Positions 27,639-52,162 of a DNA stretch of 64,000 bases are shown piece by piece. The first letter of the stretch is position 1. Each line of letters begins with the position of its first letter. The position numbers and the translations under genes are program-made. The notes under the pieces were generated by a model that did no database searches, was not told the DNA's origin, and saw only the letters and a program-made list of their open reading frames with translations. The DNA is from an uncultured Chloroflexia bacterium (lineage in GTDB: Bacteria > Chloroflexota > Limnocylindria > Limnocylindrales > CSP1-4), in the NCBI GenBank assembly GCA_963712745.1, contig CAVQJC010000001.1, positions 384,001 through 448,000 on the forward strand, written 5' to 3'.

Positions 27639-27640
27639 GC

Positions 27641-29485: not shown

Positions 29486-29531
29486 TCGTGGCCGCGAGGG
29501 TGCTTGCACCGCCTGCGTGTGTGGGCGCCGC

Positions 29532-32184: not shown

Positions 32185-33145
32185 TGGCGCGACGCTCACA
32201 CCGGGGAAGGTCCGCGGACTGGCGGCCACATCCACCCGCGAAGGCGTCTTCTGCATCCTCGCCATCGACCACCGCGATTCGTTGCGAATCGTCCTCGATC
32301 CATCCGATCCGGACGGTATCCCCGCAGCCGCCCTGACCGCGATCAAGCTCGAGCTGCTGGACGGTCTCGCTGACGAAGCCAGCGCGGTGATGCTGGAGCC
32401 TGAGTACAGCGCGGCACAAGCGATCGTCACGCGTACCCTGCCCGGCCATGTCGGCTTCCTCGCTGCGGTCGAAGCACAGGGCTACCTGGGCGACCCGGCG
32501 GCGAGACAAACGTTGCTGCTCGAGGGCTGGAGCGTAGCGAAGGCCAAGCGACTCGGCGCCAACGGCATCAAGTTGCTGGTGCTCTATCGCCCGGATGGGG
32601 GAGCCATCTCCGAGGCACAGGAGCGCACCGTCGCGGACGTCGTCGAGGACTGCGCGCGATGGGACATCCCGTTGTTCCTAGAGCCGCTGCTGTACGAGGC
32701 CAGCGATGGCGCGACGACGGAGCGCCGCGCGCTGGTCATCGAAACCGTGCGGCGGTTGGGCGCACTCGGCCCGGACGTGCTCAAGGTGCAATTTCCGGTG
32801 GACACCGATGTAGAGCCCGACCGCGCACGCTGGCGGGATGCGTGTGCCGAGCTCGACGACGCTGCGCCGGTGCCGTGGGCACTGCTATCAGGCGGCGGTA
32901 GCTACGCGCGGTTCCGCGAGCAACTTGAGATCGCCTGTGCAGCGGGCGCATCGGGTTTCATGGTCGGTCGAGCGCTATGGGGCGAGTACGTGACTGCATC
33001 CCTGGTCGCCCGTCCGGAGCTCCTCCGGATGACGGTGCAGCCACGCTTCGCCGAACTCTCTTCGATCGCGCGTGCACAGGGTCGCGACTGGGGCCAGCGC
33101 CACACGCTGCCGGGCGTGGACGAGCAGTGGTACAGGTCGTATTGA
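32177..33145 (+). CDS. LacD-type class I aldolase (tagatose-1,6-bisphosphate aldolase family)
   Basis: LAIDHRDSL, SAVMLEPEY, KLLVLYRPD, DVLKVQFP, ASGFMVGRALW. Confidence 0.85.
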   Translation: MTDGATLTPGKVRGLAATSTREGVFCILAIDHRDSLRIVLDPSDPDGIPAAALTAIKLELLDGLADEASAVMLEPEYSAAQAIVTRTLPGHVGFLAAVEAQGYLGDPAARQTLLLEGWSVAKAKRLGANGIKLLVLYRPDGGAISEAQERTVADVVEDCARWDIPLFLEPLLYEASDGATTERRALVIETVRRLGALGPDVLKVQFPVDTDVEPDRARWRDACAELDDAAPVPWALLSGGGSYARFREQLEIACAAGASGFMVGRALWGEYVTASLVARPELLRMTVQPRFAELSSIARAQGRDWGQRHTLPGVDEQWYRSY

Positions 33146-33177
33146 AACCGCACGATCTGCGTACAACGGCGCCATCG

Positions 33178-34224
33178 TCAGCCCGTGACGGTATGGGCGG
33201 AGGTCGGTCCGGTGACGCCGGCAGCTTCATAGATCCTTCCGATGAGCTGCAGATTGGCCACGGCATCCTCGGGCGGGACCGGCGCAGGGCGTCCATCGAG
33301 GATAGCCATGGCGAAGGCTGTGGCCTGCAGACCGTACTGGTCGGCCGCCGGGACTTCGATCGTCCGTATCGACGAGTGGTGCGGATGGGCGTCGCCGCCA
33401 GTGCCGAGGGTGATCGTGGTCCGGTACGTCGCGGGGCAGTTGAAGGGATCAGCGACCGACAGCCAGCCGGAGGTGCCATGCAGGCGCACGCGGTGGTCGG
33501 GCTCGTGCTCCATGCCGACCGTGAATGCGGCACTCGCGTCGCCGTAGTCGAGGATGGCGCTGAAGGCCAAGTCGATCTCATTCGCCGCGTCCAGCCGAGC
33601 CGTGGCCAGCACCATCCGCGGATCATCGCCCAGCAACCAGCGGCTGAGGTTGACCGCGTAGCAGCCCACGTCCAGCAGGGCCCCGCCGCCCCGCGCCATC
33701 GTCGTGCGATAGTCGCTCGACTCCAGCCGCGAGCGGAAGGCAAACCAGATCTCGAGCTCCAGCAACCGGCCGATGGCACCATCTGCGAGCAGGCGACGCA
33801 CCTCGGCCCAGGCCGGATGGAAGCGATACATGAAGGCTTCCATGAGGAGCACCTGTCGCTCGCGGCAGTAGGCCGCCACCGATTCCGCCTCGGCCGCGTC
33901 CAGGGCCAGCGGCTTCTCGCAGAGGATGTGCTTCCCGGCATCGGCAGCGGTCCGTATCCACGGCGCGTGCAGGTCGTTCGGAAGCGGCAGGTACACCGCG
34001 TCGATGTCGGGGTCTGCGAGCAGTGCCTCGTACGTGCCATAGACGCGGTCGATGCCGTATTTGGCAGCTGCAGCTTCTCCGCGGTGTCGGTCACGCGAAG
34101 CCACCGCCCTCAGCTCACACAGCTCGGCATCGCGGATCGCGGCGAAGACGTGGTTCGTCGCGATCCGGGCCGTGCCCAGGACGCCCCACTTCACCGTCTG
34201 CTGCGTCGCTCGTGCCTCGGTCAC
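33178..34224 (-). CDS. Gfo/Idh/MocA oxidoreductase (xylose dehydrogenase-like)
   Basis: WGVLGTARIA, PLPNDLH, LCEKP, MEAFMYRFHP, GGGALLDVGCY. Confidence 0.9.
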   Translation of the reverse strand: MTEARATQQTVKWGVLGTARIATNHVFAAIRDAELCELRAVASRDRHRGEAAAAKYGIDRVYGTYEALLADPDIDAVYLPLPNDLHAPWIRTAADAGKHILCEKPLALDAAEAESVAAYCRERQVLLMEAFMYRFHPAWAEVRRLLADGAIGRLLELEIWFAFRSRLESSDYRTTMARGGGALLDVGCYAVNLSRWLLGDDPRMVLATARLDAANEIDLAFSAILDYGDASAAFTVGMEHEPDHRVRLHGTSGWLSVADPFNCPATYRTTITLGTGGDAHPHHSSIRTIEVPAADQYGLQATAFAMAILDGRPAPVPPEDAVANLQLIGRIYEAAGVTGPTSAHTVTG

Positions 34225-34399: not shown

Positions 34400-35833
34400 C
34401 TACCACTCGGTGGCTGCCACGGCCTCGGGGGTGATGACGTAGGTCTCGATCTGGCCCGCCCCCGTAGCCGTTGGTGGACCTGAAGCCTGGACCCACACCG
34501 AGCCGTCCGGCGCGATGTCGAAGGCGTAAACGCACACATCGCGGAGATGTCGAGCCAACGTCGTGCCGTCGAACCGGGCGATCCCCTCGCAGCTCGCAGG
34601 GTCCTCCACGTCCGGCGTCAGCCAGACGCTTCCGTCCGCTGCCGTCTGGAGGAACGACCAGCTATGGGTGCGTGGTCCCATCAACGGAACGCCCTCATCG
34701 CTGGAATAGATGGTCGTCGGTCCACCCTCGACGTGCACGAGGTAGGGAGTGGGCAGGGACGACGCCTCGCCGTCGGCCAGGCCCTGACCGGCGAGCGGAA
34801 CCATGGTCTGTTGATAGATCCAGTAGTCACCATGGACACCCATGTCCACCGGCCCGAGTCCGATCGACAGTGCGCCAGCCGGGCCGTAGCTGCCACCACC
34901 GGCCTGGGGAAAGCCCAGCCACAGCTCGCAACCTGGGCAACCTTCGTCCTCATCCATCAGCAGGAGGACTTCCACCTCGGCGTCCGGTCGCTCATAGCTC
35001 TGGGCGAAGAAGTCGTGGACGACCGGGCTGACCCAGAGATCGCTCACTCGTGGTCCTGCGTCCCCGCCCACGTCTCCGACCTCGACCCAGCCCGTCCCGT
35101 TGAAGCGTTCGAGGGTCGAGCCATCGGTGGCCCAGACCGTGCCGTCTGGCTGCATGTCGAAGGCCGTGACGCCTTCCTTCCGGACCGTCCACGTGCCATC
35201 GGTGAAGGACACCAGGTGGCCACCGTTGATCGTCCAAAGCACGCCATCAGGGGCCACCTTTACCTTCTGTCCCTGGCGACCTCCGATCTCCCTGCCCACT
35301 GGATAGCTGTGCTCGTCACCGACTCGAAAGAAATCGTCATGCCCAACGACCCAGACGCTGCCGTCGAGCCCCGCCACGACGTTGGTGCGGTAGAACGCCT
35401 GGGGCCCATCGCCCGCTCCGGCCACTGGTCGAGACAGGTCACGCACACCATCACTGACGACACGGAATACTCCCTGCTCGACTCTTTCAGCGGAGAGAGC
35501 CACGCCTGACAGCAGATCGGGCATGACCGAGGCCTCCGGCGCTGCTGTCGCAGTTGCGGTCGCTCCAGGCACCGTTGACGCCCCGACCACTGGCAGCGAC
35601 TCCTGGCTCGCCTGCTGCGTGAGAACGCCCGCGAGCAGGAACCCGCCGAAGAGCGCCACGATGGCACCCGCGACGATGAACTTGGTCGCACTGAACATGG
35701 TCTGGAACCTCCACCTGGGGGATGTGGTCGTGGTGGCGTGCACGATCTCCATGGCATCGAAGCGCGGCAGCGGACCGATCTCGCGTCGCAACTCATCGCC
35801 GATCTGGCGTTCGAAGGCGGTCATGTCGTCCAT
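34400..35833 (-). CDS. Putative anti-sigma/sensor: short cytoplasmic N-terminus, one TM helix, extracellular beta-propeller-like domain
   Basis: TM IVAGAIVALFGGFLLAGVL; repeated xDGxVW motifs; TGATG overlap with sigma gene. Confidence 0.7.
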   Translation of the reverse strand: MDDMTAFERQIGDELRREIGPLPRFDAMEIVHATTTTSPRWRFQTMFSATKFIVAGAIVALFGGFLLAGVLTQQASQESLPVVGASTVPGATATATAAPEASVMPDLLSGVALSAERVEQGVFRVVSDGVRDLSRPVAGAGDGPQAFYRTNVVAGLDGSVWVVGHDDFFRVGDEHSYPVGREIGGRQGQKVKVAPDGVLWTINGGHLVSFTDGTWTVRKEGVTAFDMQPDGTVWATDGSTLERFNGTGWVEVGDVGGDAGPRVSDLWVSPVVHDFFAQSYERPDAEVEVLLLMDEDEGCPGCELWLGFPQAGGGSYGPAGALSIGLGPVDMGVHGDYWIYQQTMVPLAGQGLADGEASSLPTPYLVHVEGGPTTIYSSDEGVPLMGPRTHSWSFLQTAADGSVWLTPDVEDPASCEGIARFDGTTLARHLRDVCVYAFDIAPDGSVWVQASGPPTATGAGQIETYVITPEAVAATEW

Positions 35834-36375
35834 CAGTCGAGGTCCTGTCGTAGCAGATCCAGGAGGCGCTTCAGTCGTTGACGGGTGCCCGCTGGGCTGA
35901 TCCCGAGGGCGGTCGAGAGTTCCGTCGCGTCGAAGCCGAGGACGTAGCGCATCGTGAGAAGCGCTCGGTCATCAGGGTCCAGTCGCTGCATGGCCGCACG
36001 GAGATCCATCCCATCGACCCCTGTCGCCGGGTCGGTGCCGCCCCGCTTCTCGGATGCATCGACGACGACCTCTACTTCAGAGCGCCTTCGTCGCTTGCGC
36101 ATGAGTTGCTTCGCTTCATTCACTGCGACCGAGATGAGCCAGGGGCGAAGGCGCTCCGGCTGGCGGACCGATCCGAGTTTCTTCCAGGCGATGGACCAGG
36201 CCGCTTGCACGGCCTCCTCGGCCATGAGCCGATCGCGGCAGACGATCACACAGATGCCGTACATCTCGTTCTGGTATGCGGTCACGATGCTACCGAACGC
36301 GATGTCGTCTCCGGCAGCGGCGGAGGCGAGAGCTACCGAGAGGTCCCGATCAGCCGTGTTGGTCATCGCCTCCAT
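35833..36375 (-). CDS. ECF RNA polymerase sigma factor
   Basis: Region 2 AEEAVQ...LRPWLISVAVN; region 4 LDPDDRALLTMRY...GTRQRLKR; 180 aa. Confidence 0.9.
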   Translation of the reverse strand: MEAMTNTADRDLSVALASAAAGDDIAFGSIVTAYQNEMYGICVIVCRDRLMAEEAVQAAWSIAWKKLGSVRQPERLRPWLISVAVNEAKQLMRKRRRRSEVEVVVDASEKRGGTDPATGVDGMDLRAAMQRLDPDDRALLTMRYVLGFDATELSTALGISPAGTRQRLKRLLDLLRQDLD

Positions 36376-36611: not shown

Positions 36612-36701
36612 TGGCGGAGAGGGTGGGATTCGAACCCACGAGACGCTTGCACGCCCAACGGTTTTCAAGACCGTCGCTTTCAACCACTCAGCCACCTCTC
36701 C
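36612..36701 (-). tRNA. tRNA-Ser (anticodon TGA)
   Basis: GGAGAGGTGGCTGAGTGG...CT-TGA-AA, long variable arm, GGTTCGAATCC, encoded CCA; 90 nt; TATCCT -10 box upstream. Confidence 0.97.
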
Positions 36702-37025: not shown

Positions 37026-37694
37026 GTGGATGCCACCCTACTTCATCCCCGTAGAGCAACCAGGCGCTCGTTTCACGCGGTCGTTGTCGGGGCCCTCCTC
37101 GCAGCCGTCGTGATCGGATCGCCGGTGGCAGCTGCCAGTACTCCCTTGAAACGGAACCTGGTGAAGAATCCCGGAGCCCAGGCGGGCATCAGCCGCTGGG
37201 AGACGTTTCCGCCGTCCGATTTCACGACCCACGCCTACGGGCCACCTGGTTTCGGCTTCCCATCCAAGGCCGCCTCCCATGCCATCGGTGGGAGTTCCCT
37301 GTTCTTCTACGCCGGCTTGTATGACTACGGCTACGGCACATGCGGGGATGCGCAGCAGGCCATCAGGCTCAGACACCTCGGTTCAGCGGTCGATCGCGGA
37401 CACATCAAGGTGACGTTCACGGGTTATGCCGGCACGAATGGCGGTGCGAGTATCACCGCCCACACCGACCTGTACTTCCGTGATGGCCGGAACCACTCGG
37501 TCTCCAAGAACGGCTTCACGCGTTCGTTCACGAGCACGAATGAACAGTACGAGCGAGTCTGGGGTTCGACGAAGCTGCCAAGGAAGACGCGCATCCTGCG
37601 CGTCCACCTTTGGGCCGACGGCGACGACACGACGACCTCGGGCGATTGCCAGGCATTCTGGGACAACATCAAGGTCACGCTGAAGCGCGTCTAG
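37026..37694 (+). CDS. Secreted basic protein with a galactose-binding/FBA-like jelly-roll domain
   Basis: Signal peptide ending VAA-AS; NLVKNPGA at N-terminus and FWDNIKVTL at C-terminus, typical of CBM4/FBA-like folds. Confidence 0.6.
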   Translation: MDATLLHPRRATRRSFHAVVVGALLAAVVIGSPVAAASTPLKRNLVKNPGAQAGISRWETFPPSDFTTHAYGPPGFGFPSKAASHAIGGSSLFFYAGLYDYGYGTCGDAQQAIRLRHLGSAVDRGHIKVTFTGYAGTNGGASITAHTDLYFRDGRNHSVSKNGFTRSFTSTNEQYERVWGSTKLPRKTRILRVHLWADGDDTTTSGDCQAFWDNIKVTLKRV

Positions 37695-37715
37695 GCGCCC
37701 GCTGCGGTACGGTCC

Positions 37716-40700
37716 GTGGCCCAGAGGATGAAGATCGGTCGTCGCGACCGCCCCCCGATGCTGCGCAACGATGGTCGCCGCTGGCCAGCGATGAGCCTGG
37801 GCTTGCTGCTCGCGTTGGTGCCATCGGTGGCAGGGTCAGCCAGCGCCACGTTGGCACAGTCGGATTGTGGCAACGAGGTGGAGCCCAACGATGCCCCGGA
37901 GCAAGCTGCTTCCGTAGTTGGAGCATTCTGCCGTGTGGGCACCTTGCCCGACGGCGACCAGGACCTGTTCGTCTGGGAACTCGATGCAGCAGACGCATCC
38001 AGCCGATGGACCATCTCGATCGACGGTGTGCCAGGGACCTCTACCGTCGTGCAGGTGATACCCATCACCTCCGATCAAGGCGTGTCCCCCATGGCGGTCG
38101 GCAGCCCGTTGGTGAAGGTGTCGACTGAACCACAGGCTGAGAGTCCCACCACGCAACCTGACCTGCTGCTCGGGCAGGGACGCTATCTGCTGGGAGTCTC
38201 GCGTTCCCCACTCCCGGACGGCTCCAGCCCGACCACGTTTGGGTACGCCCTTTCCATCAGTCCCGGGGCCACGATGCCCGAACCGGGTGACGCGGAACCG
38301 AATGATGATGAGGCGCATGCCAGTCCGGCGAGTGGGACGTTCTCGCTGAGCGGCGACGGCGCCAGCACCGACGATGTCTTCGCCTGGACGCTCAGTGAGG
38401 CGGATGCCCTGCAGGCCTGGCAACTCGATGTCCTCGGTCAGGTCGGTGCGTACTACTACCTGACGCTCGCCGGCCAGGATGGCCAGCAACTTGTCTCGGT
38501 CTCGGACGATGCGCTGGGGGCTGCCCACCTGTACGATCTGCGGCTTGCTGCGGGCACCTACTTGGTGACGGTCAGCAACCAGGGCGAAGGGGTACGTCCA
38601 TATGCCCTGGCAAGTCGCGCTAATGAGCCTGGTCAAGCCGATGCAGAGCCCGATGACGATACTGGTCAAGCGCTGCCGATCGACCCGGAAACGCGCGTCG
38701 CACGAGGGCGACTCGCGCGCTCTGGTGATATCGATACCTTTCGGTTCGCCGTAGACGAAGCGGGTGCCTCACTCCAGATGGATGTCACCTTGCTCTGGCG
38801 CGGGACTACGACGCGCCAGGTCTGCCTGCTCGATGCGGGAGGCGCGACGCTCCAGTGCCAGGCTGGCAAGTCGGGGGCGGTCCTGCGCGGGCTCGTCTTG
38901 CCGGTTGGCGACTACTTCGTCCAGGTCAGCGGCGATAGCGACCTGAACGATGCATACGCGCTACGGATCGATCCGACCAGCCCACCCGCGCCGGATTTCG
39001 AGGCTGAGCCCAACGACAGTCCGGCCACGGCGACCCACTTCACCCCGGACCTCACCATGCGCGGCTACCAGATCGAGACCGATCCAGACGTGTTCAAGGT
39101 GAGCGTGTCGGGCGATCCACAGCTCTGGCAGGTCGATGCGACGGGGGATCACATCAGCCAGCTGCGCTGGGTCGGCGCGGATGGCATCGACCTGGCAACT
39201 GCGGACGTCGGCGCCGACGGACAGAGCGCGAGGGTGACTGACATGTACCTCATCCCCGGAGACTTCTGGGTGCGCATCGATGGGGCCGGCGACTATGCCC
39301 TGAGCCTGACGGCGCTAGGTCCGCCGGTGACAGGGGGCGAGCGCGAGTCCAACAACGTCAGCGATGCCGCGGAGCCGCTGCTCATGGGCGATACCCGGAG
39401 CGGGAGACTGGCCGGGCCGACGGATATCGATGTGTTCCGTCTCTCACTCTCGGCCCCCGAGCACATCCGCATCGATCTGGCGCCCCCTCCAGATGGGGCC
39501 ATCGCGATGGCGCTGATGCAGGATGGCGACACGATCGCGCAGGTGCGCTCCCCGGAAGTTGGCCGGCGACTAAGCTACGACGCGCAGCTGTCCGCCGGCG
39601 ACTACGAGATCTGGCTGAGCACCGGGACCCCGAGTGAGCAACGCTACGACCTCACGGTCAGTCGCGAAGATCCTTTCGCGTACGCCCTGGACCAGGAGCC
39701 CAACGACACGGCCAAGACCGCCCGCACGCTGCACCAAGGCATGCTCATCGCAGGATCCGCATGGGTGCCCTATGACGAGGACTGGTACCGGCTTGAGCCC
39801 CTGGCTGACGGCGCGGAACTCCGGGTCAGCGCGAATGGAGCGGTCGATCGCGTAGAACTTAGCGACGGCGCCAGCAGTATCGAGCTGATCCAGGATGAGC
39901 TCGACGGGGCCCTCGTGGCCCAGGAGCCCCCGATCGGCGTGCCGCTCTTCCTTCGGGTCGTCGCGATCGGCGACTATCAACTGACCGCCAACGACGTGGG
40001 CATGCTCACGGACGGTGGGGACCCGTCAGCGGCGAGCACGCTGACGGCACCGCTTCCAGCTTCCCTCGCGGTCCGCCTGGATACGTCGGCTGTGGCGGCG
40101 TACTGGCCTGCGGGCCAGCGTGTCGCCGGTACCATCTCGATCACCAACACATCCGCTGTACCGCTCGAGCTGGACCTCGATAGCGTCACGAGCCACTACC
40201 TCTGGAGCACCGAGCTCGACCAGCGACACGTGACCGTGCCCGCGGACACGGCTATCGAGGTGCCGCTGATGGTCCGGATCCTCCCTGATGCCTGGGCTGA
40301 CGTGCCAGCGCGCGTGACCGTGCGCGCCCGGGATGCAAGCGGAGCTACGGCCACCGGCTACGCCGAACTGACACCTAGTCGCGACACAGTGCCCAGTGAC
40401 CCGGTGCAAGCCTGGTCGGTGCCGGCTGCATTGCTCGGCGGCCTCGATGTCGCCTCTGCTGCGCTGGGCGGAGTGCCCGGGGGCTCCAGTCGACGTCGAC
40501 CAGGAGGCGAAGCTACATGACGGCGTGACCCCATCGGGTGACGGCTTCGGGGTGCCATTTACCGAAGGCCAGCCACTCACGTTGACGGTTGATCTGGCCG
40601 GAGACGAGCCGGTCCTCGTGGCAGGCACGATCCTCGACCCGCAGGCGCGAGGGATGCCCATCGACGGACTGCCGCATCATTTCGCACTGCTCCTGTCGGA

Positions 40701-43230
40701 CGATGGGGCGAATTTCACGGTCGCACTCGAAGATGACCTGGACCCGCTGGCCATCGACCAAACGTTCGAACTGCCGACGCCCATGCCAGCACGGTACGCG
40801 CAGCTGCGCATCGATTCCGTCTATGGGTCGGCCGCGACGACGACCGCCGTGCTCGGCGAGTGGAAGGTCGTGGCCGTGCCCGGTGACACACCGATACCGG
40901 GCCTGCTCAACATCGCCGACCCGATGCGTGGCGGGCACGTCGTCTGGATGGACCCGCAATCAGAAGATCTCACGTTCGCCGACACGCTTCTCGACGAGGA
41001 CACCGCGCGGCAGACACTCTCCGCGACGCCCGGGACTCGGCTTGCGTGGGCGATCGGGTTCCAGGATGATCGGGCGGCGCGCATCGAGCGGCTCGAATGG
41101 GTCGACCCACCGGACACCGATGCGAGCATGCGATTCAAGCAAGTGGACATCGCCGTTACCACGGGCAGCGCCATCGGCCCGTGGCGGGACATGGGCACCT
41201 GGGACCTGTCCCGCGGCGATGACGGCAGCGTGGCGCCCTTCACGTTCGAAACACCCGAGTGGGCTCGCTTCGTGCGCTATTCGGGCAAGGCTGTGCCAAA
41301 AGGTGGCTATGCCGCCGAAGAGCCAGCGGTCCTGCGCATCCTTGAGACACCGACGGACGACGCCTATCGATCGGTCCTGGGCGAATGGGGCCAGACCAGT
41401 CGCAGTGGCCCATTCGAATGGCTGGAGCCACCAGACGTCACGGCGCCTCCGAGTGTCGCGGAGGCCAACGACTCGCCTGCGACTGCCCAGGCCTTGCCAG
41501 CCGCTACCAAGGTCACCGATCGCGTCCAGGCCGAACACGACGTCGACTGGTACTCGTTCACCGTCCCGCGCGGGCAGAACAGCGTCACGTTCACCGTCGG
41601 CGGTCAGCCGAGCGTCGGGGTCAGCCTAAGCCTCGCGGACGTCGACGGGACGACCGTACCGATGACGTTCATGGAGGGGGATGCTCCGGGCACGGTCAGC
41701 TATAGCGCCCCGGTCGCGGGAGGTGCCTCCTATCGTGTGCTGGTCGAGCAGCCGCCCTTCTCCGCGGTGGTGACCTTCGACACCAGCGGCAGCATGGGCG
41801 ACTACCTCTCGTTCGTCCGACAGGCATTGCGCTCCTATGCCGACGGAGTCACGCAGGGCCAGGAGACCATCCAGGTCGTGCCCTTCGAGGCGCAGCCCTT
41901 GCTGCCGGACTGGAGCGACGATGCCTACGTCCTGGGTAATGCCGTGGCTGGCTACGTACCTGGCGATGGGTCCAGCTCGGCTGAGGCCGCGCTGCTTGAT
42001 GCCAGCAAGTTGCTGACGGGGCACGAGGGTGCGCGGGCCATCCTGGTCGTCACCGATGGCGAGACCTCGTCGTTCGCCAAGAGCACACAGCTCTGGAACG
42101 AGCTCGCCGCCGTGCGACCGGTCATCTTCGCGGTCCACGTGGGCGGTGACTCAGAGCCGCGTCAGAGCCGCCACTTCATGCAGGATTGGTCTGACGCGGC
42201 TGGCGGCTACTACCAGTACGCGCGCACGCATGCCGAGATCGATCGGGCCTTCGATCGCATGGCCACGTGGCTGCGCCGCCCCGCCGCCTACACGCTCTCG
42301 TATGCGACATCGATCGAGCAGCTGCCTCCTCCCGAGCCCGGGTCCCTCGACGTGGTCAGCTGGCCAAGTGCGGATGGCAGTCCTAGCCAGCCCACCGTTG
42401 GCAAGGACGTGGCGATCGAACTGATCCTCGATACCTCGGGCAGCATGCTCGGATCGTTCGGCGGGAAGCGCCGCATCGATGTGGCCAAGGAGGCCTTCAC
42501 GAGCCTCGTCGATGATGGTCTGCCGGCTGGCGTCCCGGTCGCGCTGCGGGTCTTCGGAGACCGCGGGGACCAGTGTGCGACCCGTCTGGCCGTGCCCTTC
42601 GGCCCGCTTGACCCGCGCACGCTGACCCGGTTGGTGGATGGGATCGACGTCATCCAGGCGACCGATACACCCATCGCCGCGGCGCTGAGCCGTGCGCCAG
42701 AGGACCTGGGCAGTTCGAGCGGCAGCCGCATCGTGCTGCTCATCACCGACAGCGAGGAGACCTGGCCGAACCAGGATCTGTGTGGCCGGGATCCGGCCGA
42801 GGCTATCCGCAAGATCCGGCGTGAGGGCATCACCAGCGTGAACGTCATCGGCCTCGCAGTCAACGACCGGAAGGCCACCCAGACGATGAAGCAGTGGGCT
42901 CGCGTGGGCAACGGCAGCTACTTCAAGGCAGGCAGCCTCGAGCAACTGGCGGCTGCGGTCAGGTCGGCGGTGAGCGCGCCGTACGCGGTCTTCGACGCAG
43001 CCGGCACGGAGGTCGCGAACGGCGTCGTCAACGCCGCACCCGTGCAGTTGCCGCCGGGCAGCTACCGGGTCGTCGTCTCGAGCGATCCGGAGGTCACCTT
43101 CGAAGCCGTAGCGCTCGAAAGCGGCCGGTCAGTGACGGTCACCATGCCCAACGCCGAACCAACGCCGCCACCGAGCGCGAACCAGCCGGCCGAAGAGGCA
43201 CCAGCGACAGCCCCGCCAGAAGGGACCTAG
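37716..43230 (+). CDS. Giant secreted protein with about 7 PPC-like repeats, Ig/discoidin-like domains and two VWA domains (frameshift near 40480)
   Basis: Signal peptide; EPND-like...DxDxF/Y repeats; two MIDAS DTSGSM motifs with VTDG and ITDS; Pro/Ala/Glu tail. Confidence 0.8.
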
Positions 43231-43232
43231 GA

Positions 43233-45464
43233 ATGCGGTTCTTGACCATCTCACAACGCTCGGCCATCGCCTTGATGGCTGTCCTTGCCCTATCGAGTGC
43301 CGGACTCCCCATCGCTCCGATCGAAGCCGCTCGGGCTGCAGACAGCGTGCCGGTCTCGTTCGCGCTGCCCGACCCTTCTGAACTCGAGGCAGACACGAGA
43401 CTGACCACCGACGACGTGCCGGCCCCTGTGAGCGGGACGCTCGATCTGGGCTTGGTCCAGGACGCCGCGGAGGCGCTGCTCGGTTCGATGCCCGCTGAAG
43501 AGTGGGACCTTGCTGCGCTGAGCTGGTCATTCGCAGGCGATGCCGAGGCGGCCTTCGCCTTCGTCCGCGATCGCATCGGCTACGAACCCTACCCGGGAGT
43601 ATTACGCGGCGCCAAGGGCACCCTGGCGGCGCGGGCCGGCAATGCGTACGACCGGGCCATCCTGCTCAAAGCGCTACTCGACGCCATGCTGGTGCCCACG
43701 CGATTCGCTTTCGGGCAGCTCGACGAAGCTACGGCCGGGGAAGTCCTGGCGCGCACGTTCGTGGCGCCCTCAGACCCGCTGCCGAACGTGGACATGGCAG
43801 GGGCCGCCGTCATCGATGCGCCGGCCATGTCCAACCGTGCCCGCCGTGACTACGCGCTCCTGCGCGAAGCGCTCGGGCAGCGGCTCGACTCGGTGACGGC
43901 CGCCCCTGCTGCCGGCGCGGCGACCGATCCGCAGCATCACGTATGGGTGCAGGTCCTTTTGGGCGCGGATTGGGTCGACTTCGACCCCACACTGCCCGAG
44001 GCACAGCCGGGCGACACGCTCACCCCTATCGTTTCCACCGCTGCTGAGATCCCGGCCGCCGAGCGGCAGAGCGTCCGCCTGGAGCTCGTGGCAGAAACAC
44101 TCACGAGCGGCAGGCTCGAGCGTCATGACGTGCTGGACAAGACACTCGACGTGGCGGAATCCTCCGACAGCGAGATCTTCCTCTACTTCCAGCCCGCCAT
44201 CGGCGGCATCGGTGGGTCGATCGCCCAGGCACTCGGCGAGGCCACCGGTTACCTGCCCGAGCTGATGATCGACGGCGTCGTCACCCAGGGCTCGAGCTTC
44301 CCGGTCCTCGGCGGCACGGACATCTTCACAGGGGAGGCCCTGGGCACATCAGGCGACGAGACCACGCTTGCCAGCCTGCGGCTCGTGGCGACGCGCCAGG
44401 CGCCAGGCTATCCGGCCGATGCCTTCGTGCGTACGCTGATCGATCGGGCGCTCCCAAGCGATCGAACCACTGGCGACGTGTCGTTCGATCGCCTCACACC
44501 ACTACAGATCGGACCGGCCGGTCCCGTGGACCTGCTGCCCCTGCACCACCTGATGATCTCGTCCGGGAGCGCCAACGCGCGCAGCCTCGTGCTCCAGCGT
44601 GCTCAGGTGGCCCGCTTCGTCGACTTGCATCTGCTGGACCCGGACGAAGCCGACGGCTACGCGCTCTCGGACCTCCTGTGGCCGGTGGCAGTCGCCGATG
44701 CCGGCCTCGTCCTGGCATCAGAGCGAACCATCGTGCACGGTCTTGGCGTGCCCGGCTCGGTAGGTGCGTATGTCGCGCGACCAAGGATCTTCATCGCCTC
44801 GCTGGCACCCACCGGTGTCGGCGAGGGTGGTATCGCCTACGAGACCGACCTGCTGGCCGACGATCTACGCATCATCGGCCCGGGTGGGCAAGCGGTGGGA
44901 GACGCAACGGACCGGCACATCTGGTACGGAGCCGCCGAGGCAGCCCTGGAGACCGAGTTCGCGTTGGCGACGGCGCGCGGCCTGGATCCTGCGACACGGA
45001 CGGTCACGGCCGTGAGCCTGGCGATGGGGTCGCCGCTAACGGTGGTCGCGGCTCACGACCAGAACGCTATCGGCGGCAGTGCGCAAGCCCTGCAGGAGGC
45101 GGTCGCAGGCGGGCTGATCGCGGTCGTGCCCGGGCCAGCGGATGCGGCGGAGGCCTGGTGGACGGTCGATCCCTCTGATGGCCAGACGCGATCGATCCTC
45201 GACCCGGGTCTGGGGGCCGGACGGGGTATCGGCAACAACTACGTCAACGAAAGCAAGGGCGCTACGCACTACGTGGACGACAAGGGCAACTCACTGGTGC
45301 GCAAGGCGGCGGGACCGCCCTCGCGTTGTGGCGGCGGCCAGGAGTACGTCGTGGTCATCGGTTGCGTCTCTACGCCGGTCGCGTGGACGATCTATGGCGT
45401 CGGCGCTGTCATCCTGATCGCGGTCGCGTATGGCGCGAGCAAGTGGTTGCAGTCCAAACTCTAG
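43233..45464 (+). CDS. Exported transglutaminase-like fold protein lacking the catalytic Cys, with C-terminal hydrophobic segment
   Basis: FAFVRDRIGYEPY.GVLRGAKGTL...GNAYDRAILL, HVWVQV, WVDFDP; WWTVDP then TM-like tail. Confidence 0.7.
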   Translation: MRFLTISQRSAIALMAVLALSSAGLPIAPIEAARAADSVPVSFALPDPSELEADTRLTTDDVPAPVSGTLDLGLVQDAAEALLGSMPAEEWDLAALSWSFAGDAEAAFAFVRDRIGYEPYPGVLRGAKGTLAARAGNAYDRAILLKALLDAMLVPTRFAFGQLDEATAGEVLARTFVAPSDPLPNVDMAGAAVIDAPAMSNRARRDYALLREALGQRLDSVTAAPAAGAATDPQHHVWVQVLLGADWVDFDPTLPEAQPGDTLTPIVSTAAEIPAAERQSVRLELVAETLTSGRLERHDVLDKTLDVAESSDSEIFLYFQPAIGGIGGSIAQALGEATGYLPELMIDGVVTQGSSFPVLGGTDIFTGEALGTSGDETTLASLRLVATRQAPGYPADAFVRTLIDRALPSDRTTGDVSFDRLTPLQIGPAGPVDLLPLHHLMISSGSANARSLVLQRAQVARFVDLHLLDPDEADGYALSDLLWPVAVADAGLVLASERTIVHGLGVPGSVGAYVARPRIFIASLAPTGVGEGGIAYETDLLADDLRIIGPGGQAVGDATDRHIWYGAAEAALETEFALATARGLDPATRTVTAVSLAMGSPLTVVAAHDQNAIGGSAQALQEAVAGGLIAVVPGPADAAEAWWTVDPSDGQTRSILDPGLGAGRGIGNNYVNESKGATHYVDDKGNSLVRKAAGPPSRCGGGQEYVVVIGCVSTPVAWTIYGVGAVILIAVAYGASKWLQSKL

Positions 45465-45642: not shown

Positions 45643-46819
45643 GTGAAGCTACGTCGTCGATCTGTCGTCACCCTCGCAGGCGCGCTACTGCTGGTGCTCG
45701 CCCTGGCGTTGCCCGGCCTCGCTGCCGGACCAGCGGAAGTAGACGCCGAACTGGCGGCCAAGCTGCAGTACCGGCTTGATCGCTGGCGGCACGAGCCACC
45801 GGGCACCCGGGGTCGCCGCTGCCGTCCGTCTGCCAGACGGCAGCCAATGGATCGGCACATCGGGCAAGAAGACCGTCGGCACGTCAGCCCAGGATCGTCC
45901 AGCCCGGCACGCCCTTCGCGGTGGCATCGCTGACCAAGACGTTCGTCGCGGCGCTGATGCTGCAACTCAACGAGGAAGGCAAGCTGGGCCTCAACGACCC
46001 CATCTCGAATTGGCTGCCCTGGTACCCCAAGGCCGACAAGATGACCGTCAGGATGCTGCTCAGTCATCGCAGCGGGCTCTTCGACTACTTCAGCCACCCA
46101 CGTTACGAGAGGCGCGTCTTCGGACGGCCCCGCCACAGTGGACCGTCGGCGAGATCCTCAAGCTGCGTGGCCCGCGCTACTGTGCTCCCGGCCGCTGCTA
46201 TCGCTATTCGAACACCAATTACGTCATCCTCGGTGCCATCGCCAACCGAAGGTGACCGGCAAGTCCGTAGCCCAGCAACATCCGTGAGCGGTTCCTTGAG
46301 CCGCTGGGCCTGACCGACACGTTCTTCCAGGGGCAGGAGCCGATCGCCAAGTTCCCGGCCAAGGGCTACTGGGCCAGGACGCGCGGCTACGCCGGATTTT
46401 CGGATGGCAGCCGCTATCGGCCGAATACGTCCGCCGCGACGGTCGCCAATGCTGCGGGAGCGCTGGTGTCCTCGGTCCGCGACATCTCCGACTGGCAGGA
46501 CGCGCTGCTCGGTGGTGACGTGCTCAGCCCGTGGTCCCTGAAGCAGATGACCTCGTTCCACCCCCGCAGCGGCTATGGCCTGGGCATGCGCTACGCCTGG
46601 CTCGACGGCATCCGTGGCATCGGCCACGGTGGTTCGCTGCGCGGCTTCGTCTCGATCATGTATCGCCTGCCCGAGCAGGATCTCGATGTGGTCGTCCTGA
46701 CCAACCTCGGACGCACCAACCTTCAGGGCCTCGCCGACGTGCTCACCCGCGTCACGTTGCGCTTCCTCGAGCCACCCGCTCCGCCGGACCCTGAGCCGGA
46801 GCCGGGCGCGGCGGCTTGA
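45643..46819 (+). CDS. Secreted serine hydrolase (beta-lactamase/D-Ala-D-Ala carboxypeptidase family; several frameshifts)
   Basis: SLTK (SxxK), LLSHRSGL, YSN, GHGG across frames. Confidence 0.85.
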
Positions 46820-47009
46820 TCAATCGACAGCACGACGCCAGCCGGCGGTAGAAGTGGGCGATGCGTGGCTGCTGCCAACTGACGTCGAGAAGCGATGGGA
46901 AGCCCGGCACCATCAGGACGTCGATGAGGCCGCTACCGAGCACCTGATACGCGATGCTGATGTCGCCACTGAGGGCGTAGCGGACCGCGCTCGGCGCGTT
47001 GGCGCTCAT
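46817..47009 (-). pseudogene. N-terminal fragment of an alpha/beta hydrolase (type often fused to adenylate cyclase or LuxR domains)
   Basis: VRYALSGDISIAYQVLGSG..D...VPG...W..P...FYRRLAS..RLI; homology stops at the convergent gene's stop codon. Confidence 0.7.
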
Positions 47010-48321
47010 GGCCCGATGCGCTCTCCCAGGCGATCGCGGAGCACGTCCGGCACGCGGATGGAACCGTCGGGCTGCTGGTAGACCTCGAGGATCGCGGCCA
47101 CGGTGCGCGGCAAGGCCAGGCCGGAGCCATTGAGCGTGTGGAGCACTTCGGGCTTGGCGCCAGCCTCAGGCCGCCAGCGGATGCTCATGCGACGTGCCTG
47201 GTAGTCGCGGAAGTTGGAGACCGAGCTGACCTCGAGCCAGTCCTCGACACCGGGGGCCCACACCTCGAGGTCGTACTTCTTGGCCTGCGTGAAGCCCATG
47301 TCGCCGCTGGCCATCAACTTGACGCGATACGGCAATCCCAGACGCTGAAGGCAGATCTCGGCGCGCTCGGTCAACCACTCGAGCGTAGCATCTGATTCAT
47401 CGGGCTTCTCGAAGGCGACCATCTCCACCTTGTCGAACTGGTGCACGCGCAGGATGCCGCGCGTCTTGGCACCCGCTGCACCGGCCTCGCGCCGGAAACA
47501 CGGCGAGTAGGCGACGTAGCGGATGGGGAGCTGGTCGGCCTCGATGATCTCGTCGCGATGGATGTTCGTGACCGGCACTTCGGCCGTGGGCACGAGGAAG
47601 AGCTCGTCGCGCGTGACCACGTACATCTGGTCTTCCTTGTCCGGGATCTGGCCCGTGCCGCGCGCAGAGTCAGCGTTGACGACGATCGGCGGCCAGACCT
47701 CGGTCATGCCGTGCTCGGTGGTGTGCAGGTCAAGGAAGTAGTCGATGAGCGCGCGCTGTAGCTTGGCTCCAGCACCCTTGTAGAGCGGGAAGCCGGAACC
47801 GCTGATCTTGGCTCCAGCGGCCAGATCGATCATGTCCAGCGACTCGGCCAACTCCCAGTGCGGCTTGCGCTCCCATGGCTGCACCTTCCTCATCATCAGC
47901 GACGGCGTGCTCAGCGGGTTCGCCCCAGGTCCGGACGATCTGGCTGGCCTCTTCGCCACCGATCGGCACGCCCGCGTCAGGCGGATTGGGAATGCGGTAG
48001 AGCAGTTCGTCGAGCCGCGTGACGATCTCCAGGAGGCGCGTATCGAGCCCGCTGATCTCGCCACCCAGCCAGGTCGACTGTTCCTTGAGCCGGGAGACTT
48101 CAGGGCCGTTCGGGTCGGCGCCGCCTCTGATGGCGTGGCCGATGGATTCGGAGATGAGCTTGCGCTGGTTGCGCAGATGGTCGCCCTTGCCAAGCACGTC
48201 GCGGCGCTCCGCGTCGATGATCAGCGCCTGATCGATGAGCGTCGGATCCTCGCCCTTGGCGATCGGCGCCCGCACGGATGCGGTCGGCTTCTTCCCGCAG
48301 CCGGGTCGGTCCGACACTCAT
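47006..48321 (-). CDS. serS: Seryl-tRNA synthetase (frameshifts)
   Basis: IPNPPD, LVPTAEVP, CFRREAGAAG, RVHQFDKVEMV, EVSSVSN, HTLNGSGLA. Confidence 0.95.
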
Positions 48322-49924
48322 GACATGACCTTCCCGGCAGCCGCAGCCGCCTCCAGCCGCGCGATGACCATGGTCTCGGCCAGGCTGGCCAGCAGCCAGC
48401 CAGCTCGCGGACCATTGGTCCGTCCAAGGAAGGCTGCGTAGACCGCCGCGAACGTGTCGCGAGAGGAGACGCCGCGTGCCTGCCCGGTACGGTAGATGAG
48501 GTCCTGCCAGGCGTCACCAGAGCGCGGATGCTCCGCGGCCACGCCCTTGGCCAGATCGCCCAGGAACAGCCACTGCACCTCGTTGAGCTCTGCGACCTCG
48601 GCCGGCACATCATCGGCGGACGGCGACCTGGTAGCGCTCGGGTGCGAAACTCTCGAGCCACGTGCTGGCGACCTCGTGCTCCGTGAGGCCACGATGGCCA
48701 GTTCCGCGTCATCGAGCGGCGCACCCTTCTCGGCCGCCATGCGCTCGTCGAGGTCGACGCCGGGCACCTGCACCAACAGCGTCAGGTGACGGAAGGCCGG
48801 GCGGAAACGCGCGCGCCTCGACCTCGATATCGGCGTTCGGGTCCAGCAGGCTGGCCGGAAGATGCGCTCAGGATTGGGCGGCAACTCGCCACGGAAGGGC
48901 AAGCCGGCGGTCGCCGTCGCGACTCGGTCGAAGTCGTCGAAGAGGCCCGGGATGGCATCGCCCTCGGGGTCGAACTCGAGCGCCCGCTTGGGCTTGTGCC
49001 GCAGGAACAGGAAACGCAGCAGCTCTGGCGGCAGCAAGTCGGCCATCTCATGGGCAGCGGCCCCACTGCCCTTGGACGTGCTCATCTTGCGACCGCCGAC
49101 GTTGAGGAACTCGTAGGGCACGTTGACGGGTGGTTCGCGATCGAAGACCTCGCGACTGATGGCGTCGCTGCGGTCGCGACTGCCGCCCTTGGTCGCGAGG
49201 TCCTTGCCGCAACCCTCGACGGTGATATCGAAGTGGCTCCATTTGGCAGCCCAGTCCACGTTGAAGGGCAGCTTGGCACGGCCGCTGAACGGGGCGACTC
49301 GCCGCCATTGTTTCCGCAGCCAGTGGCCCAGGCCACGTAGTCCGGCTTGCAGGCATACGCCACGGTCTCGCCATCCCAGTCGGTGGCGAGCGTCGTGCCG
49401 ACGCGCCCGCAGTCCTCGCAGATGACCGAGACCGGCAGCCAGCCCGGGGCGCGCTCGACGTTGCTGACGCGCAGGTAGATCTGCACGGATGGTCTCCGCT
49501 CCGTCGAGCGCACGACGGATGAAGGGGTCCATCGAACCGTCGCCGTACAGCTCGCTCATCCAGTAGATCTCGGGTTCGATGCCAAGGCCCGTGAAGGTGC
49601 CCATGAAGAGCTCGCCCACGAAGTAGCGCGCATAGCTCTCGGCGGCACTGCCCTCGGGCGCTGGCACGTGTGCCAGCGGCACGCCCATGTAGCGCTCGAC
49701 CGCGTCGGGCGTCAGGAGCGCCTGCGCATCCATGGGATCGAGGTCATCGACGCCGTAGAGGAAGCGGCTGGGCCGCTCGGCTCGTGACCAGTGCTCGTTG
49801 GATAGCATCGTGCAACACCACGCCGCGCAGCGAACCGATGTGCACCGTGCCCGAGGGCGTCTTCGAGATCGTTGACGACCTGCGGGCCATCGAGTGATGT
49901 GGCTAGCTCGTCAGCCCAGAACAT
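48318..49924 (-). CDS. lysK: Class I lysyl-tRNA synthetase (several frameshifts)
   Basis: MFWADELA, TPSGTVHIGSLRG, DDLDPMD, AKLPFNVDWAAKW, EGCGKDL, KMSTSKG, GPRAGW. Confidence 0.9.
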
Positions 49925-49969
49925 GGTGCGCGGTTTTCCCTGTCCCGGAGATGCGGCCCGAGACTCGTG

Positions 49970-50440
49970 TCAGCGGATGCTGACGATCGTATAGGTGGAG
50001 TCACCGGCCGGCACCGAGACGGTCACTGCATCGCCCTTCTTCTTGCCGAGCAGTGCACGGCCAACCGGCGAGTTGTTGGAGATGCGTCCCTCATCGGGAG
50101 CAGCCTCGGCGGCACCGACGATGGTGTACTTCTCCTTGCCGTTCTCGCCTTCGATGGTCACGGTCGAACCGATCTGCACGATGGTGCGGCTGTGATGCTC
50201 ATCGATGAGCACAGCGTTCTTGATGATGGCGGTCAGTGACTGGATGCGCCCCTCGACGAAGGCCTGCTCGTTCTTGGCGTCCTCGTACTCAGCATTCTCC
50301 GTGACGTCGCCGTATTCCTTGGCGTCATGGATGCGTTGAGCAACCTCGGGTCGCTTGACGTTGGTGAGCTCGGCGAGCTCTGCCTTGAGCTTCTCAAGAC
50401 CTTCGGCCGAGAGGTATTCGGGCTTGTTAGCGTTCACCAA
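49970..50440 (-). CDS. greA: Transcription elongation factor GreA
   Basis: AKEYGDVTENAEYEDAKNEQAFVEGRI, ISNNSPVGRALLGK. Confidence 0.97.
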   Translation of the reverse strand: MVNANKPEYLSAEGLEKLKAELAELTNVKRPEVAQRIHDAKEYGDVTENAEYEDAKNEQAFVEGRIQSLTAIIKNAVLIDEHHSRTIVQIGSTVTIEGENGKEKYTIVGAAEAAPDEGRISNNSPVGRALLGKKKGDAVTVSVPAGDSTYTIVSIR

Positions 50441-50603
50441 GGAATCCTCGTGAGCGAGCCAATATGGGCTAGGTCAGGCGTATGCGGAAGATGGGCTTGT
50501 CAGGGAAGGGTCCCGACGGTCCGCCGCTACGCCCCGCGAGAACGGGCGGCTTGGGCGCCGTTCAGTTGGCGCAATGCTACCACTCGCGGCCCAGAAGCGA
50601 CCG

Positions 50604-51645: not shown

Positions 51646-52162
51646 CAGGGTCCTCCTGGGTGGATCGGGCGGTCGGAGGCGACGCCGACGGTCGGTCGCT
51701 GGAACAGCTCGATGTGGTAGCCGTCGGGGTCGATGCAGGTAGGCGGCACGGCCGCCCTTGTTGGGCCCGACCGGGATCTCGACCGCACCCGCGGACCGGG
51801 CTCGGTAGCCGGCGGCGACGGCCCGGGCGTGCAGTCGCGGCCGCATCCGTGACGTGGAAGCAGAGGTGGCCGGTGCCCGGGTCCCAGGCTCGCGGGGCGG
51901 GCGTGGGCCGAGCGTCCGTGCCGTGGTACTCCAGGAGCTCCACGATAGACGCCCTCGCTGCCGGGGATGCGCAGGTAGACGATGCGGGCGTCGGTCATGT
52001 CGATGCCCATCACCGCCCGGACGTAGTCGACGGCGTCCAGCGTCACGTCGAAGTGGACCTCGAGGCCCAGCGTGTCGCGGTAGAACGCCAGCGACTCGCC
52101 TCCATGTCGCTGACCGCGATGCCGCCGTGGAAGAAGCCGCTGATCGGCGAGGACGCGTTCAC
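51645..52162 (-). CDS. VOC/glyoxalase family protein (frameshifts)
   Basis: HGGIAVSDME..LAFYRDTLGL, ELLEY, GHLCFHV, DPDGYHIELFQ. Confidence 0.8.

Follow-up and report, generated by a model that had tools for sequence, protein, structure and literature searches.

A cluster of three genes, termed g1, g2 and g3, lies at positions 37,026–45,464 of a 64,000-nucleotide stretch (the window; G+C content about 67%) of contig CAVQJC010000001.1 from an uncultured Chloroflexia bacterium (GenBank assembly GCA_963712745.1). g1 encodes a small basic jelly-roll protein, g2 a giant acidic protein of PPC-like repeats, CBM32-like modules and two VWA domains, and g3 a transglutaminase-like (TG-like) protein without the nucleophilic cysteine. 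Relatives of g2 and g3 are linked in several phyla, which points to an undescribed cell-surface module, probably adhesive and of the general type of a surface adhesin with a dedicated accessory protein.

Layout of the cluster and domains of g2

The three genes are called as closely packed open reading frames (ORFs) in the same orientation (Table 1). The stop codon of g1 (TAG, 37692–37694) is separated by 21 nt from the earliest start of g2 (GTG, 37716), which is ambiguous, as an ATG at 37728 may serve instead and the alignment of one relative begins there. The stop codon of g2 (TAG, 43228–43230) lies 2 nt ahead of the g3 start (ATG, 43233), and a ribosome-binding-site-like GAAGGGA is placed within the 3' end of g2 ahead of that start, which suggests that the translation of g2 and g3 is coupled. 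A promoter and terminator scan returned no promoter-like site and one terminator-like site, located within g3, fewer than expected from shuffled sequence. No second TG-like or g2-like gene was found in the window by a tblastn-type check. The initial annotation had described three packed, co-oriented genes (gaps of about 21 and 2 nt) with signal-like N-termini, encoding a basic jelly-roll protein, an acidic giant with two metal-ion-dependent adhesion site (MIDAS) motifs and a frameshift near 40480, and a 743-aa transglutaminase-fold protein with a hydrophobic C-terminus, and all of these features were recovered, the signal peptides of the three proteins being called on hydrophobicity alone.

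Table 1. Coordinates of the g1–g3 cluster, its domains and its neighbours in the window.
Feature	Coordinates	Strand	Basis or remark
g1	37026..37694	+	222 aa; ORF and translation
g2, first ORF, frame A (P0002)	37716..40520	+	934 aa; signal-like N-terminus, six PPC-like repeats, Ig-like domain; coding to ~40482
Six tandem PPC/collagen-binding-domain-like repeats, ~115 aa each	37875..40058	+	E-P-N-D-like opening motifs
Ig-like beta-sandwich (NEW3/FixG_C-like), approximate boundaries	40083..40355	+	FixG_C E 0.21 in window copy
g2, second ORF, frame B (P0003)	40396..43230	+	944 aa; two CBM32/discoidin domains, PPC repeat 7, two VWA domains, C-terminal beta-sandwich, Pro-rich tail; coding from ~40480
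g2 frame break, frame A to frame B	40476..40483	+	One-base change in C3G5 run CCCGGGGG
Two discoidin (F5/8 type C)/CBM32-like domains, approximate boundaries	40560..41400	+	Pfam and PDB profile
Seventh PPC-like repeat	41458..41724	+	Repeat HMM; Pfam PPC residues 382–442, E 4.7e-4
VWA domain 1, MIDAS-type motif DTSGS...S...D	41752..42315	+	TIGR03436
VWA domain 2, complete MIDAS	42421..42921	+	Pfam VWA_2 48.6 bits, cut-off 27
g2 C-terminal beta-sandwich, approximate boundaries	42973..43170	+	Conserved region
g3 (P0005)	43233..45464	+	743 aa
Transglutaminase-like core of g3	43542..43988	+	Pfam residues 104–252; Ala138, His236, Asp251
CxGGxEY...GCVSxP two-cysteine motif ahead of g3 transmembrane helix	45276–45371	+	Residues ~682–713; A1 alignment
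C-terminal transmembrane helix of g3	45372..45458	+	Model helix 714–742; C-terminal 19-mer Kyte-Doolittle 1.89
Beta-lactamase-family (PF00144) gene	45921–46819	+	In three pieces
PF00144 piece, profile 52–118	45921–46313	+	Profile match
PF00144 piece, profile 124–158	45776–46255	+	Profile match
PF00144 piece, profile 168–313	46271–46819	+	Profile match
Sugar/inositol-type catabolic cluster	23632–34224
477-aa ORF	34400–35833	-	No Pfam family
ECF-type sigma factor	35833–36375	-	Sigma70_r2 and r4_2 matches
tRNA-Ser (anticodon TGA)	36612–36701	-
Housekeeping gene region	47006–51943	-
Class II tRNA synthetase core	47006–48193	-	Family match
Class I lysyl-type tRNA synthetase	48318–49808	-	Family match
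GreA/GreB	49970–50440	-	Family match

As one protein, g2 comprises about 1825 aa (pI 4.2–4.4), begins with a hydrophobic segment (15-mer, Kyte-Doolittle 2.07) and ends in a Pro-rich tail without a hydrophobic anchor. The same pattern is found among g2-like proteins, an N-terminal hydrophobic segment being present in 67 of 74 and a C-terminal transmembrane-like one in 2 of 74. The N-terminal half has no significant Pfam match and contains six repeats opening at P0002 residues 56, 194, 311, 431, 544 and 661. A hidden Markov model (HMM) built from the six repeats of the window protein and of its closest relative, P0124, matches a seventh copy outside the training set (P0003 residues 355–443, i-E 7.8e-9), while the weak PDB matches of the repeats are the binding domains of collagenases ColG and ColH (E 0.035 and 0.3). 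Pfam PPC (PF04151) reaches 21.4 bits in the window copy, on one repeat only and below the cut-off of 25.9, and is present in the precomputed domains of 32 of 74 full-length g2 relatives. The Ig-like domain is matched at its place in a relative (L031) by NPCBM_assoc (27.0 bits, cut-off 24.4).

The discoidin-type region shows the same distribution, with F5_F8_type_C at 21.2 bits in the window copy (second-ORF residues 58–143), below the cut-off of 28.2, and at 33.9, 35.2, 32.6 and 64.0 bits in relatives at loci L002, L003, L031 and L053; PF00754 appears among the domains precomputed for the full-length relatives in 32 of 74 cases. In the PDB, the g2 profile (A3) matches CBM32 structures at two profile regions (E 1.3e-6 to 1.6e-4), namely those of Clostridium perfringens NagH and NagJ, a Bacteroides thetaiotaomicron CBM32 and an alginate-lyase CBM32. 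The PPC and discoidin domains that had been proposed for g2 thus stand above the Pfam cut-off in relatives and below it in the window copy itself.

Each of the two VWA domains carries the motif DTSGS (P0003 residues 462 and 679); the general function of MIDAS VWA domains is metal-dependent ligand binding. VWA1 matches NCBIfam TIGR03436 below cut-off (residues 453–640, E 5.3e-10, 39.3 bits against 81.25), its equivalent at L045 matches VWA_3 above cut-off (31.8 bits against 27), and both VWA domains are strongly matched at L053. Residues D462, S464 and D554 of VWA1 are at least 90% conserved, the middle position being serine, or threonine at L053 and L056. In VWA2, D679, S681, S683, T758 and D785 are the same in all 21 aligned proteins, and this domain is, judging from its sequence, a bona fide MIDAS VWA domain. 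By profile, its closest relatives among PDB structures are mussel PTMP1 (E 8.4e-15) and two VWA entries of the BatB type, 4jdu and 3ibs. The beta-sandwich that follows has invariant G876, G888 and Y890, and together with VWA2 (second-ORF residues ~660–917) forms the part common to the short VWA partners of distant phyla as detected by tblastn.

The two g2 ORFs are offset by +1 and are collinear halves of one protein. P0124 is a single ORF of 1825 aa, of which residues 5–902 align with the first window ORF (60% identity) and residues 899–1795 with the second (77%), placing the junction at 899–902; the tblastn pieces of another relative overlap at 40474–40487, across the same junction. All 74 longer relatives are single ORFs (1653–1958 aa). 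The PPC-repeat half is the less conserved of the two, as would be expected if a distal stalk diversifies faster. The frame break may be an assembly error. It is unlikely that the frameshift is real and the cluster decaying, with g2 a pseudogene beside two intact neighbours and no working system. Such a reading accommodates the break itself and the state of the gene directly downstream of g3, a beta-lactamase-family gene likewise broken into three pieces, which is either a pseudogene or the product of assembly indels. Against it, g2 has one break only, located in a homopolymer run between long open halves that retain high identity to an intact relative, and the longer relatives are uninterrupted. 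The g2 and g3 relatives at five loci from metagenome-assembled genomes (MAGs; L016, L018, L032, L050 and L060) also lie in many frame-shifted pieces, typical of indel-prone assemblies and suggesting that such assemblies are common in this genome group. An assembly error is therefore at least as likely as decay, and decay would in any case bear on the window copy only and not on the module.

g3, a transglutaminase-like protein without the cysteine

g3 matches Transglut_core (PF01841; 30.9 bits, cut-off 23; residues 104–252) and no other family in Pfam or in NCBIfam (the latter up to E 0.01). Its AlphaFold2 model (26 sequences; pLDDT 80.6, pTM 0.83) consists of an N-terminal helix (residues 3–22), a multi-domain ectodomain and a C-terminal helix (714–742). 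The canonical transglutaminase nucleophile motif is G-x-C. In the transglutaminase-like (TGL) triad, the cysteine stands at the start of a helix, and histidine and an acidic residue on successive strands (extract of PMC3495828). The papain-like core of the model has a helix (138–151) opening with Ala138, H236 within strand 235–243 and D251 directly after strand 246–250, so that the cysteine-equivalent position was placed from the secondary structure of the model and that description.

Cysteine occupies this position in 0 of 160 members of the g3 family (Ala 103, Ser 39, Asp 7, others rare) and in 0 of 83 ORFs from the fetched loci, whereas 156 of 160 retain His and Asp, and 144 of 160 retain Asn137. 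The protein thus has the family match and the papain-like core and lacks the catalytic Cys-His-Asp triad, which bears out its earlier designation as a pseudo-transglutaminase. In alignment A1, the residues R112, D113, Y120, G122, L124, R125, G126, D140, R202, D206, H236, W238 and D251 are invariant around the cleft, whose near-invariant set is Asn137, Asp140, Arg125, Arg202, Asp206, His236 and Asp251. The g3 family is thus an old, uniformly Cys-less transglutaminase-like lineage with a strongly constrained cleft, and, as the cysteine is lost family-wide but the rest of the cleft is near-invariant, the core most likely acts as a binding site and not as an enzyme.

Among PDB structures, Foldseek places the model near a putative cysteine protease (3isr, prob 1.00), LapG (4u65_E, prob 0.97) and FXIII/TG2/TG3, all with E values of 0.03–0.4 and low whole-model template modelling (TM) scores, and near arylamine N-acetyltransferases, weakly. 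A PDB sequence search with profile A1 gave an unrelated proteasomal ATPase segment as its best match (E 0.03), and the core alone a best E of 0.3.

These fold matches could also suit a processing or maturation factor, which would cleave, release or cross-link g2 by a non-cysteine mechanism, or hold g2 for another enzyme, by analogy to LapG acting on the giant adhesin LapA or to sortase acting on VWA-tipped pili. This appears quite improbable. The linkage of g2 and g3 would fit it equally well; His236, Asp251 and neighbouring polar residues are near-invariant, and the Ser-bearing minority could be active, as an extract of PMC3495828 allows for Ser-bearing TGL domains. Yet alanine is the commonest residue at the nucleophile position, in window g3 as well, cysteine never occurs, catalysis would require an unprecedented mechanism, and no LapD-like, type-1 secretion or sortase genes lie nearby.

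In addition to the cleft, the topology of the family is conserved, with an N-terminal hydrophobic segment in 173 and a C-terminal transmembrane-like segment in 151 of 196 TG-like proteins. g3 is accordingly predicted to be a type-I membrane-anchored transglutaminase-like pseudo-enzyme. Ahead of its transmembrane helix lies the motif CxGGxEY...GCVSxP (x represents any amino acid), with a GCVSxP-like pattern in 42 of 160 relatives, which may form a disulfide next to the membrane or act as a sorting or anchoring signal of an unrecognised type; none of the NCBIfam models of C-terminal sorting signals (LPXTG, PEP-CTERM, GlyGly-CTERM, MYXO-CTERM and others) matches g3 up to E 0.01. Against 1.84 billion representatives (library clustered at 50% identity), a profile search returned 6990 TG-like proteins at E ≤0.001, 4181 at ≤1e-10 and 2260 at ≤1e-30, which are named in their sources, where at all, as 'hypothetical' or 'transglutaminase domain-containing'. 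Automatic annotation would misread this family as cysteine proteases, which the uniform loss of the cysteine corrects.

Linkage of g2 and g3 across phyla and the genomic setting

A locus set was assembled by searching profile A1 against one genome per species; of 204 pattern matches 136 were confirmed, and the best 80 were kept, giving 73 loci from Chloroflexota (Limnocylindrales, 'Chloroflexia'), Trueperaceae, Alphaproteobacteria, Gemmatimonadota, Acidobacteriota, Planctomycetota and others. A g2-like gene was detected by tblastn in 32 of the 73 TG-like loci, and 30 of 35 g2-like segments lie within 2.5 kb of the TG-like gene. These 30 are arranged in every orientation: 10 are divergent, 5 convergent and 15 tandem, with g2 leading in 10 of the tandem pairs, as it does in the window, and the TG-like gene in 5. 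Linked pairs are present in Chloroflexota, Thermomicrobiota, Acidobacteriota, Pseudomonadota and Planctomycetota and in two unclassified MAGs. In Acidobacteriota and Planctomycetota the match to window g2 is limited to VWA2 and the C-terminal part, and the VWA partners are shorter (386–1351 aa) and without the long PPC stalk. In a tree of 64 TG-like rows, 26 adjoin a g2-like ORF (≤1.5 kb), 5 show one at a greater distance, 14 lack one, and for 19 the flanks do not reach far enough for the assignment; the g2-adjacent rows are spread over all major clades. g2 and g3 thus constitute a conserved two-gene module, whose linkage is kept through rearrangement across phyla.

The module is often multiplied locally. 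Two g2 copies, each adjoining a TG-like gene, are found at L004 and L032, with two or three TG-like genes within 20 kb; two tandem TG-like genes follow g2 at L053 and L056, and a second TG-like gene lies 2–4 kb from the first at L003 and L010. A different elaboration is seen in a Phycisphaerales MAG (L062), where the VWA-matching ORF (11917–15969, 1351 aa) starts inside the end of the TG-like gene and ends in a zinc-ribbon-like CxxC...CxxC tail, and a CsgG-like protein with a zinc ribbon (8745–9779) is encoded just upstream of the TG-like gene.

The initial annotation had proposed a three-gene system, of which the g2–g3 linkage stands, while g1 occurs in only 3 of the 73 TG-like loci (L006, L014 and L016), all of them close relatives and each also carrying g2 and g3. 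g1 is thus a clade-specific accessory gene confined to the close relatives of the window. Its family consists of 39 proteins including the window copy (about 224 aa, 45–67% identity), named only 'hypothetical protein', and the window copy has a pI of 9.95 (9.66 without the leader) and no family match in Pfam, NCBIfam or PADLOC, Pfam FBA being sub-significant (E 0.13). The AlphaFold2 model (20 sequences, pLDDT 82.5) is an all-beta sandwich behind a disordered leader, for which Foldseek returned 129 PDB matches at E ≤0.001. Fbs1, Fbs2 and FBG3 lead the list with their sugar-binding domains (E 3.7e-7 to 8e-7; for Fbs1, E 3.7e-7 with TM scores of 0.59 query-normalised and 0.73 target-normalised), followed by CBM16, CBM61, CBM22 and CBM4 modules, at 8–17% identity among the matches listed. 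A language-model atlas lists for g1 an FBA cluster (0.91) and DUF642/CBM_4_9 clusters (0.88–0.89). g1 shares with Fbs1/FBA and with CBM4, CBM16, CBM22 and CBM61 the common galactose-binding-like jelly-roll and differs from them in being stand-alone, secreted, bacterial and of a small family. It is therefore a putative secreted stand-alone lectin-type jelly-roll protein, in which sugar binding is suggested by the fold.

No third conserved gene emerged from all-against-all clustering of 4001 ORFs, which otherwise returned only antisense shadows and local housekeeping synteny. The local synteny clusters, shared among close Chloroflexota, are an ABC sugar transporter, a GFO/IDH/MocA oxidoreductase and an amidohydrolase. 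Likewise, Pfam detected no family common to the flanks in 83 flanking ORFs of 20 loci (83 of 131 candidate ORFs, those farthest from the pair being dropped), and no MoxR ATPase, DUF58, sortase, type-1 secretion or LapD-like gene was found there. A PIN-domain gene and an OLD-family (DUF2813 + TOPRIM) ATPase-nuclease gene, which are of defence or mobile-element type, follow the cluster at L006 (10889–13054) and L014 (13406–15540), the g1-carrying loci most similar to the window.

It is very improbable that the cluster is a conflict or defence system built on VWA proteins (MoxR-VWA or ternary type) in which the TG-like protein is the effector peptidase. VWA domains do occur together with TGL peptidase domains in systems of this kind (extracts of PMC7159879 and PMC8195603), and nuclease genes adjoin the cluster at the two loci just named. 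Against these points, none of the PADLOC models matches g1, either g2 ORF, g3 or the neighbouring 477-aa protein, the pair has no conserved NTPase neighbour of the MoxR, STAND or any other type, g1, g2 and g3 all bear export signals as judged from hydrophobicity, and the TGL domain lacks the cysteine. Nor does anything point to the effector display that had been proposed for the cluster.

In the window, a minus-strand gene for an extracytoplasmic function (ECF)-type sigma factor is divergent from g1–g3, with the tRNA-Ser gene between it and g1. The start of the 477-aa ORF overlaps the sigma factor gene by one base, and its product, with one transmembrane segment (about residues 51–70) and repeated DG[ST]VW motifs, looks like an anti-sigma or sensor partner of the sigma factor. 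The sigma factor was rejected as a part of the module, as its relatives occur in 2 of 73 loci (L015 and L028), both without g2. Upstream of the module lies a sugar- or inositol-type catabolic cluster encoding a periplasmic sugar-binding protein, a xylose-isomerase-like TIM barrel, two GFO/IDH/MocA oxidoreductases, an HpcH/HpaI aldolase, a thiamine pyrophosphate enzyme, a short-chain dehydrogenase/reductase, a PfkB kinase and a DeoC/LacD-family aldolase. ABC transporter, oxidoreductase and amidohydrolase relatives also flank TG-like genes in close Chloroflexota, and these sugar-catabolic neighbours look like lineage synteny without a functional link. Downstream, the minus-strand housekeeping genes place the cluster in an ordinary chromosomal context.

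Proposed role of the pair and comparison with known systems

Tentatively, g2 and g3 are read as a two-gene module of the cell surface: the secreted giant, a putative glycan- and metal-dependent binder, would be tethered or received by the dead transglutaminase-like protein. In this proposal, g2 would be exported by its N-terminal signal without a membrane anchor of its own, presenting a stalk of six PPC-like repeats followed by the Ig-like domain, two CBM32 modules, the seventh PPC repeat, two VWA domains and the beta-sandwich. g3 would be exported with its N-terminus outward and held in the membrane by the single C-terminal helix, and we infer that it serves as the membrane receptor or tether keeping g2 at the cell surface. 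The vestigial g3 cleft might grip a g2 peptide, in line with the description of other inactive TGL domains as peptide-binding modules (extract of PMC3495828); alternatively, an acidic g3 residue might be coordinated by the metal ion of a g2 MIDAS. Binding of glycans or other polymers, in adhesion, aggregation or matrix scaffolding, would fall to the distal domains of g2 and, where it is present, to g1. The anchoring through the third gene suggested by the initial annotation is in line with the C-terminal segments, found in most TG-like and very few g2-like proteins, and is plausible.

Several points weigh against this reading. The association of the two proteins is deduced from gene linkage and topology; a co-fold of g3 residues 40–700 (A1) with g2 second-ORF residues 650–925 (A3), covering VWA2 and the C-terminal sandwich only, scored 0.00 in two runs without controls and counts neither way. 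Of the 64 TG-like rows, the 14 that lack a g2-like gene, among them one spurious overlapping frame, have flanks of 6 kb or more on both sides, which indicates that the TG-like protein is able to function alone or with a distant partner. Conserved synteny, whose absence had been named in advance as evidence against a system, accordingly holds for the pair with this reservation. The g2 tree is not cleanly sorted by TG-like clade, with 5 changes over 13 + 10 rows (three rows being N-terminal fragments) compared with a mean of 7.8 on shuffling and 13 of 500 shuffles as low as 5, and very similar g2 proteins adjoin either deep TG-like clade, so that co-diversification with a specific partner is not clearly apparent. 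In diderm phyla, the pair would reside in the periplasm, barring further export of g2, and this is a poorer fit to a surface adhesin. The serine-bearing g3 relatives leave room for catalysis in some members, the whole-model Foldseek search of g3 gave a best E of 0.021 and none ≤0.001, leaving two thirds of the protein, with the domains behind residue 260, without an assigned fold family, and the window g2, being out of frame, may not be produced.

Some of these observations would suit co-regulated proteins that form no complex, in which g2 and g3 are independent binders in the same process, such as capture of polysaccharide or particulate matter or building of an extracellular matrix, and g3 binds an envelope or matrix component instead of g2. 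The CBM32 modules of g2, the lectin fold of g1 and the adjoining sugar-catabolic genes agree with such a process, as do the TG-like rows without g2 and the similar g2 proteins beside either clade. This explanation is fairly unlikely, since adjacency survives in all four orientations and across phyla and duplicated g2 copies each retain a TG-like neighbour, which is the usual signature of interacting products, while the flanking genes vary by locus, so that no common pathway is visible.

A broader version of the tether proposal, in which the pair is an ancient and widespread receptor–ligand system with the Cys-less transglutaminase fold as membrane receptor for MIDAS VWA proteins, is not very likely; it would, with the same doubt, be the bacterial equivalent of metal-dependent adhesion of the integrin type, with a dead enzyme as its building material, and the two-cysteine motif ahead of the g3 helix might then be a new anchoring or sorting signal. 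If the tether is real, a pseudo-enzyme would have gained a new use, and monoderm-type envelopes a new means of retaining giant adhesins; if not, an ordinary, well-defined gene pair is still left. The VWA linkage gives both families, which occur mainly in little-studied environmental phyla such as Chloroflexota (Limnocylindrales), Acidobacteriota and Planctomycetota, a hypothesis that can be tested.

In agreement with the initial annotation, which could not match the operon to a named system, no description of the g2–g3 pair was found in the literature searched, which left most subscription journals outside, and no named system in PADLOC or NCBIfam corresponds to it. The Lap system of Pseudomonas and relatives (LapA, LapG and LapD) resembles it in that the gene of a giant repeat-rich adhesin lies beside that of a dedicated transglutaminase-fold protein; LapA carries a VWA domain, and LapG, one of the Foldseek matches of g3, determines whether LapA is retained by the cell. 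However, LapG is an active cysteine protease (extracts of PMC3032545 and PMC4359373) under the control of LapD, while g3 has alanine at the nucleophile position, 743 aa with large extra domains and a C-terminal transmembrane anchor, and no sequence homology beyond the fold was found between them. No GGDEF/EAL, ABC-type type-1 secretion or RTX family is present among the window neighbours, and none is conserved in the related loci, where one RTX protein occurs, in the flanks of L057 only.

The operon of a MoxR AAA+ ATPase, a VWA protein and a YebA(TgpA)-like TGL protein is the only conserved prokaryotic neighbourhood so far described (extract of PMC3495828) in which the gene of a VWA protein is coupled with that of a TGL-domain membrane protein. 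It differs in having the MoxR ATPase, a cytoplasmic-loop TGL domain in a protein of eight transmembrane segments and an intact peptidase triad, whereas the g2–g3 pair has no ATPase, exported proteins, one C-terminal transmembrane helix and no cysteine. MoxR-type (AAA_3) ATPases are absent from 17 window ORFs and from the 83 flanking ORFs of 20 loci, and g3 has one N-terminal and one C-terminal hydrophobic segment instead of multiple membrane spans.

With the MIDAS VWA adhesins, namely integrin I-domains, myxobacterial CglB (a metal-dependent VWA surface adhesin; extract of PMC9946355), mussel PTMP1 and BatA/BatB, g2 shares the complete DxSxS...T...D MIDAS of VWA2. The combination of seven PPC-like repeats, two CBM32 modules, tandem VWA domains and a TG-like neighbour distinguishes g2 and was not found described for those adhesins. 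g3 in turn is comparable to the inactive TGL domains of Rad4, Cyk3 and CC2D2A/CEP76, in which the papain-like fold is kept, the triad is incomplete and binding of proteins or peptides is proposed (extract of PMC3495828). Those proteins are eukaryotic and intracellular, whereas g3 is bacterial and predicted to be extracytoplasmic, keeps the histidine and the aspartate, and carries a motif of its own, aGN[AS]xDR.

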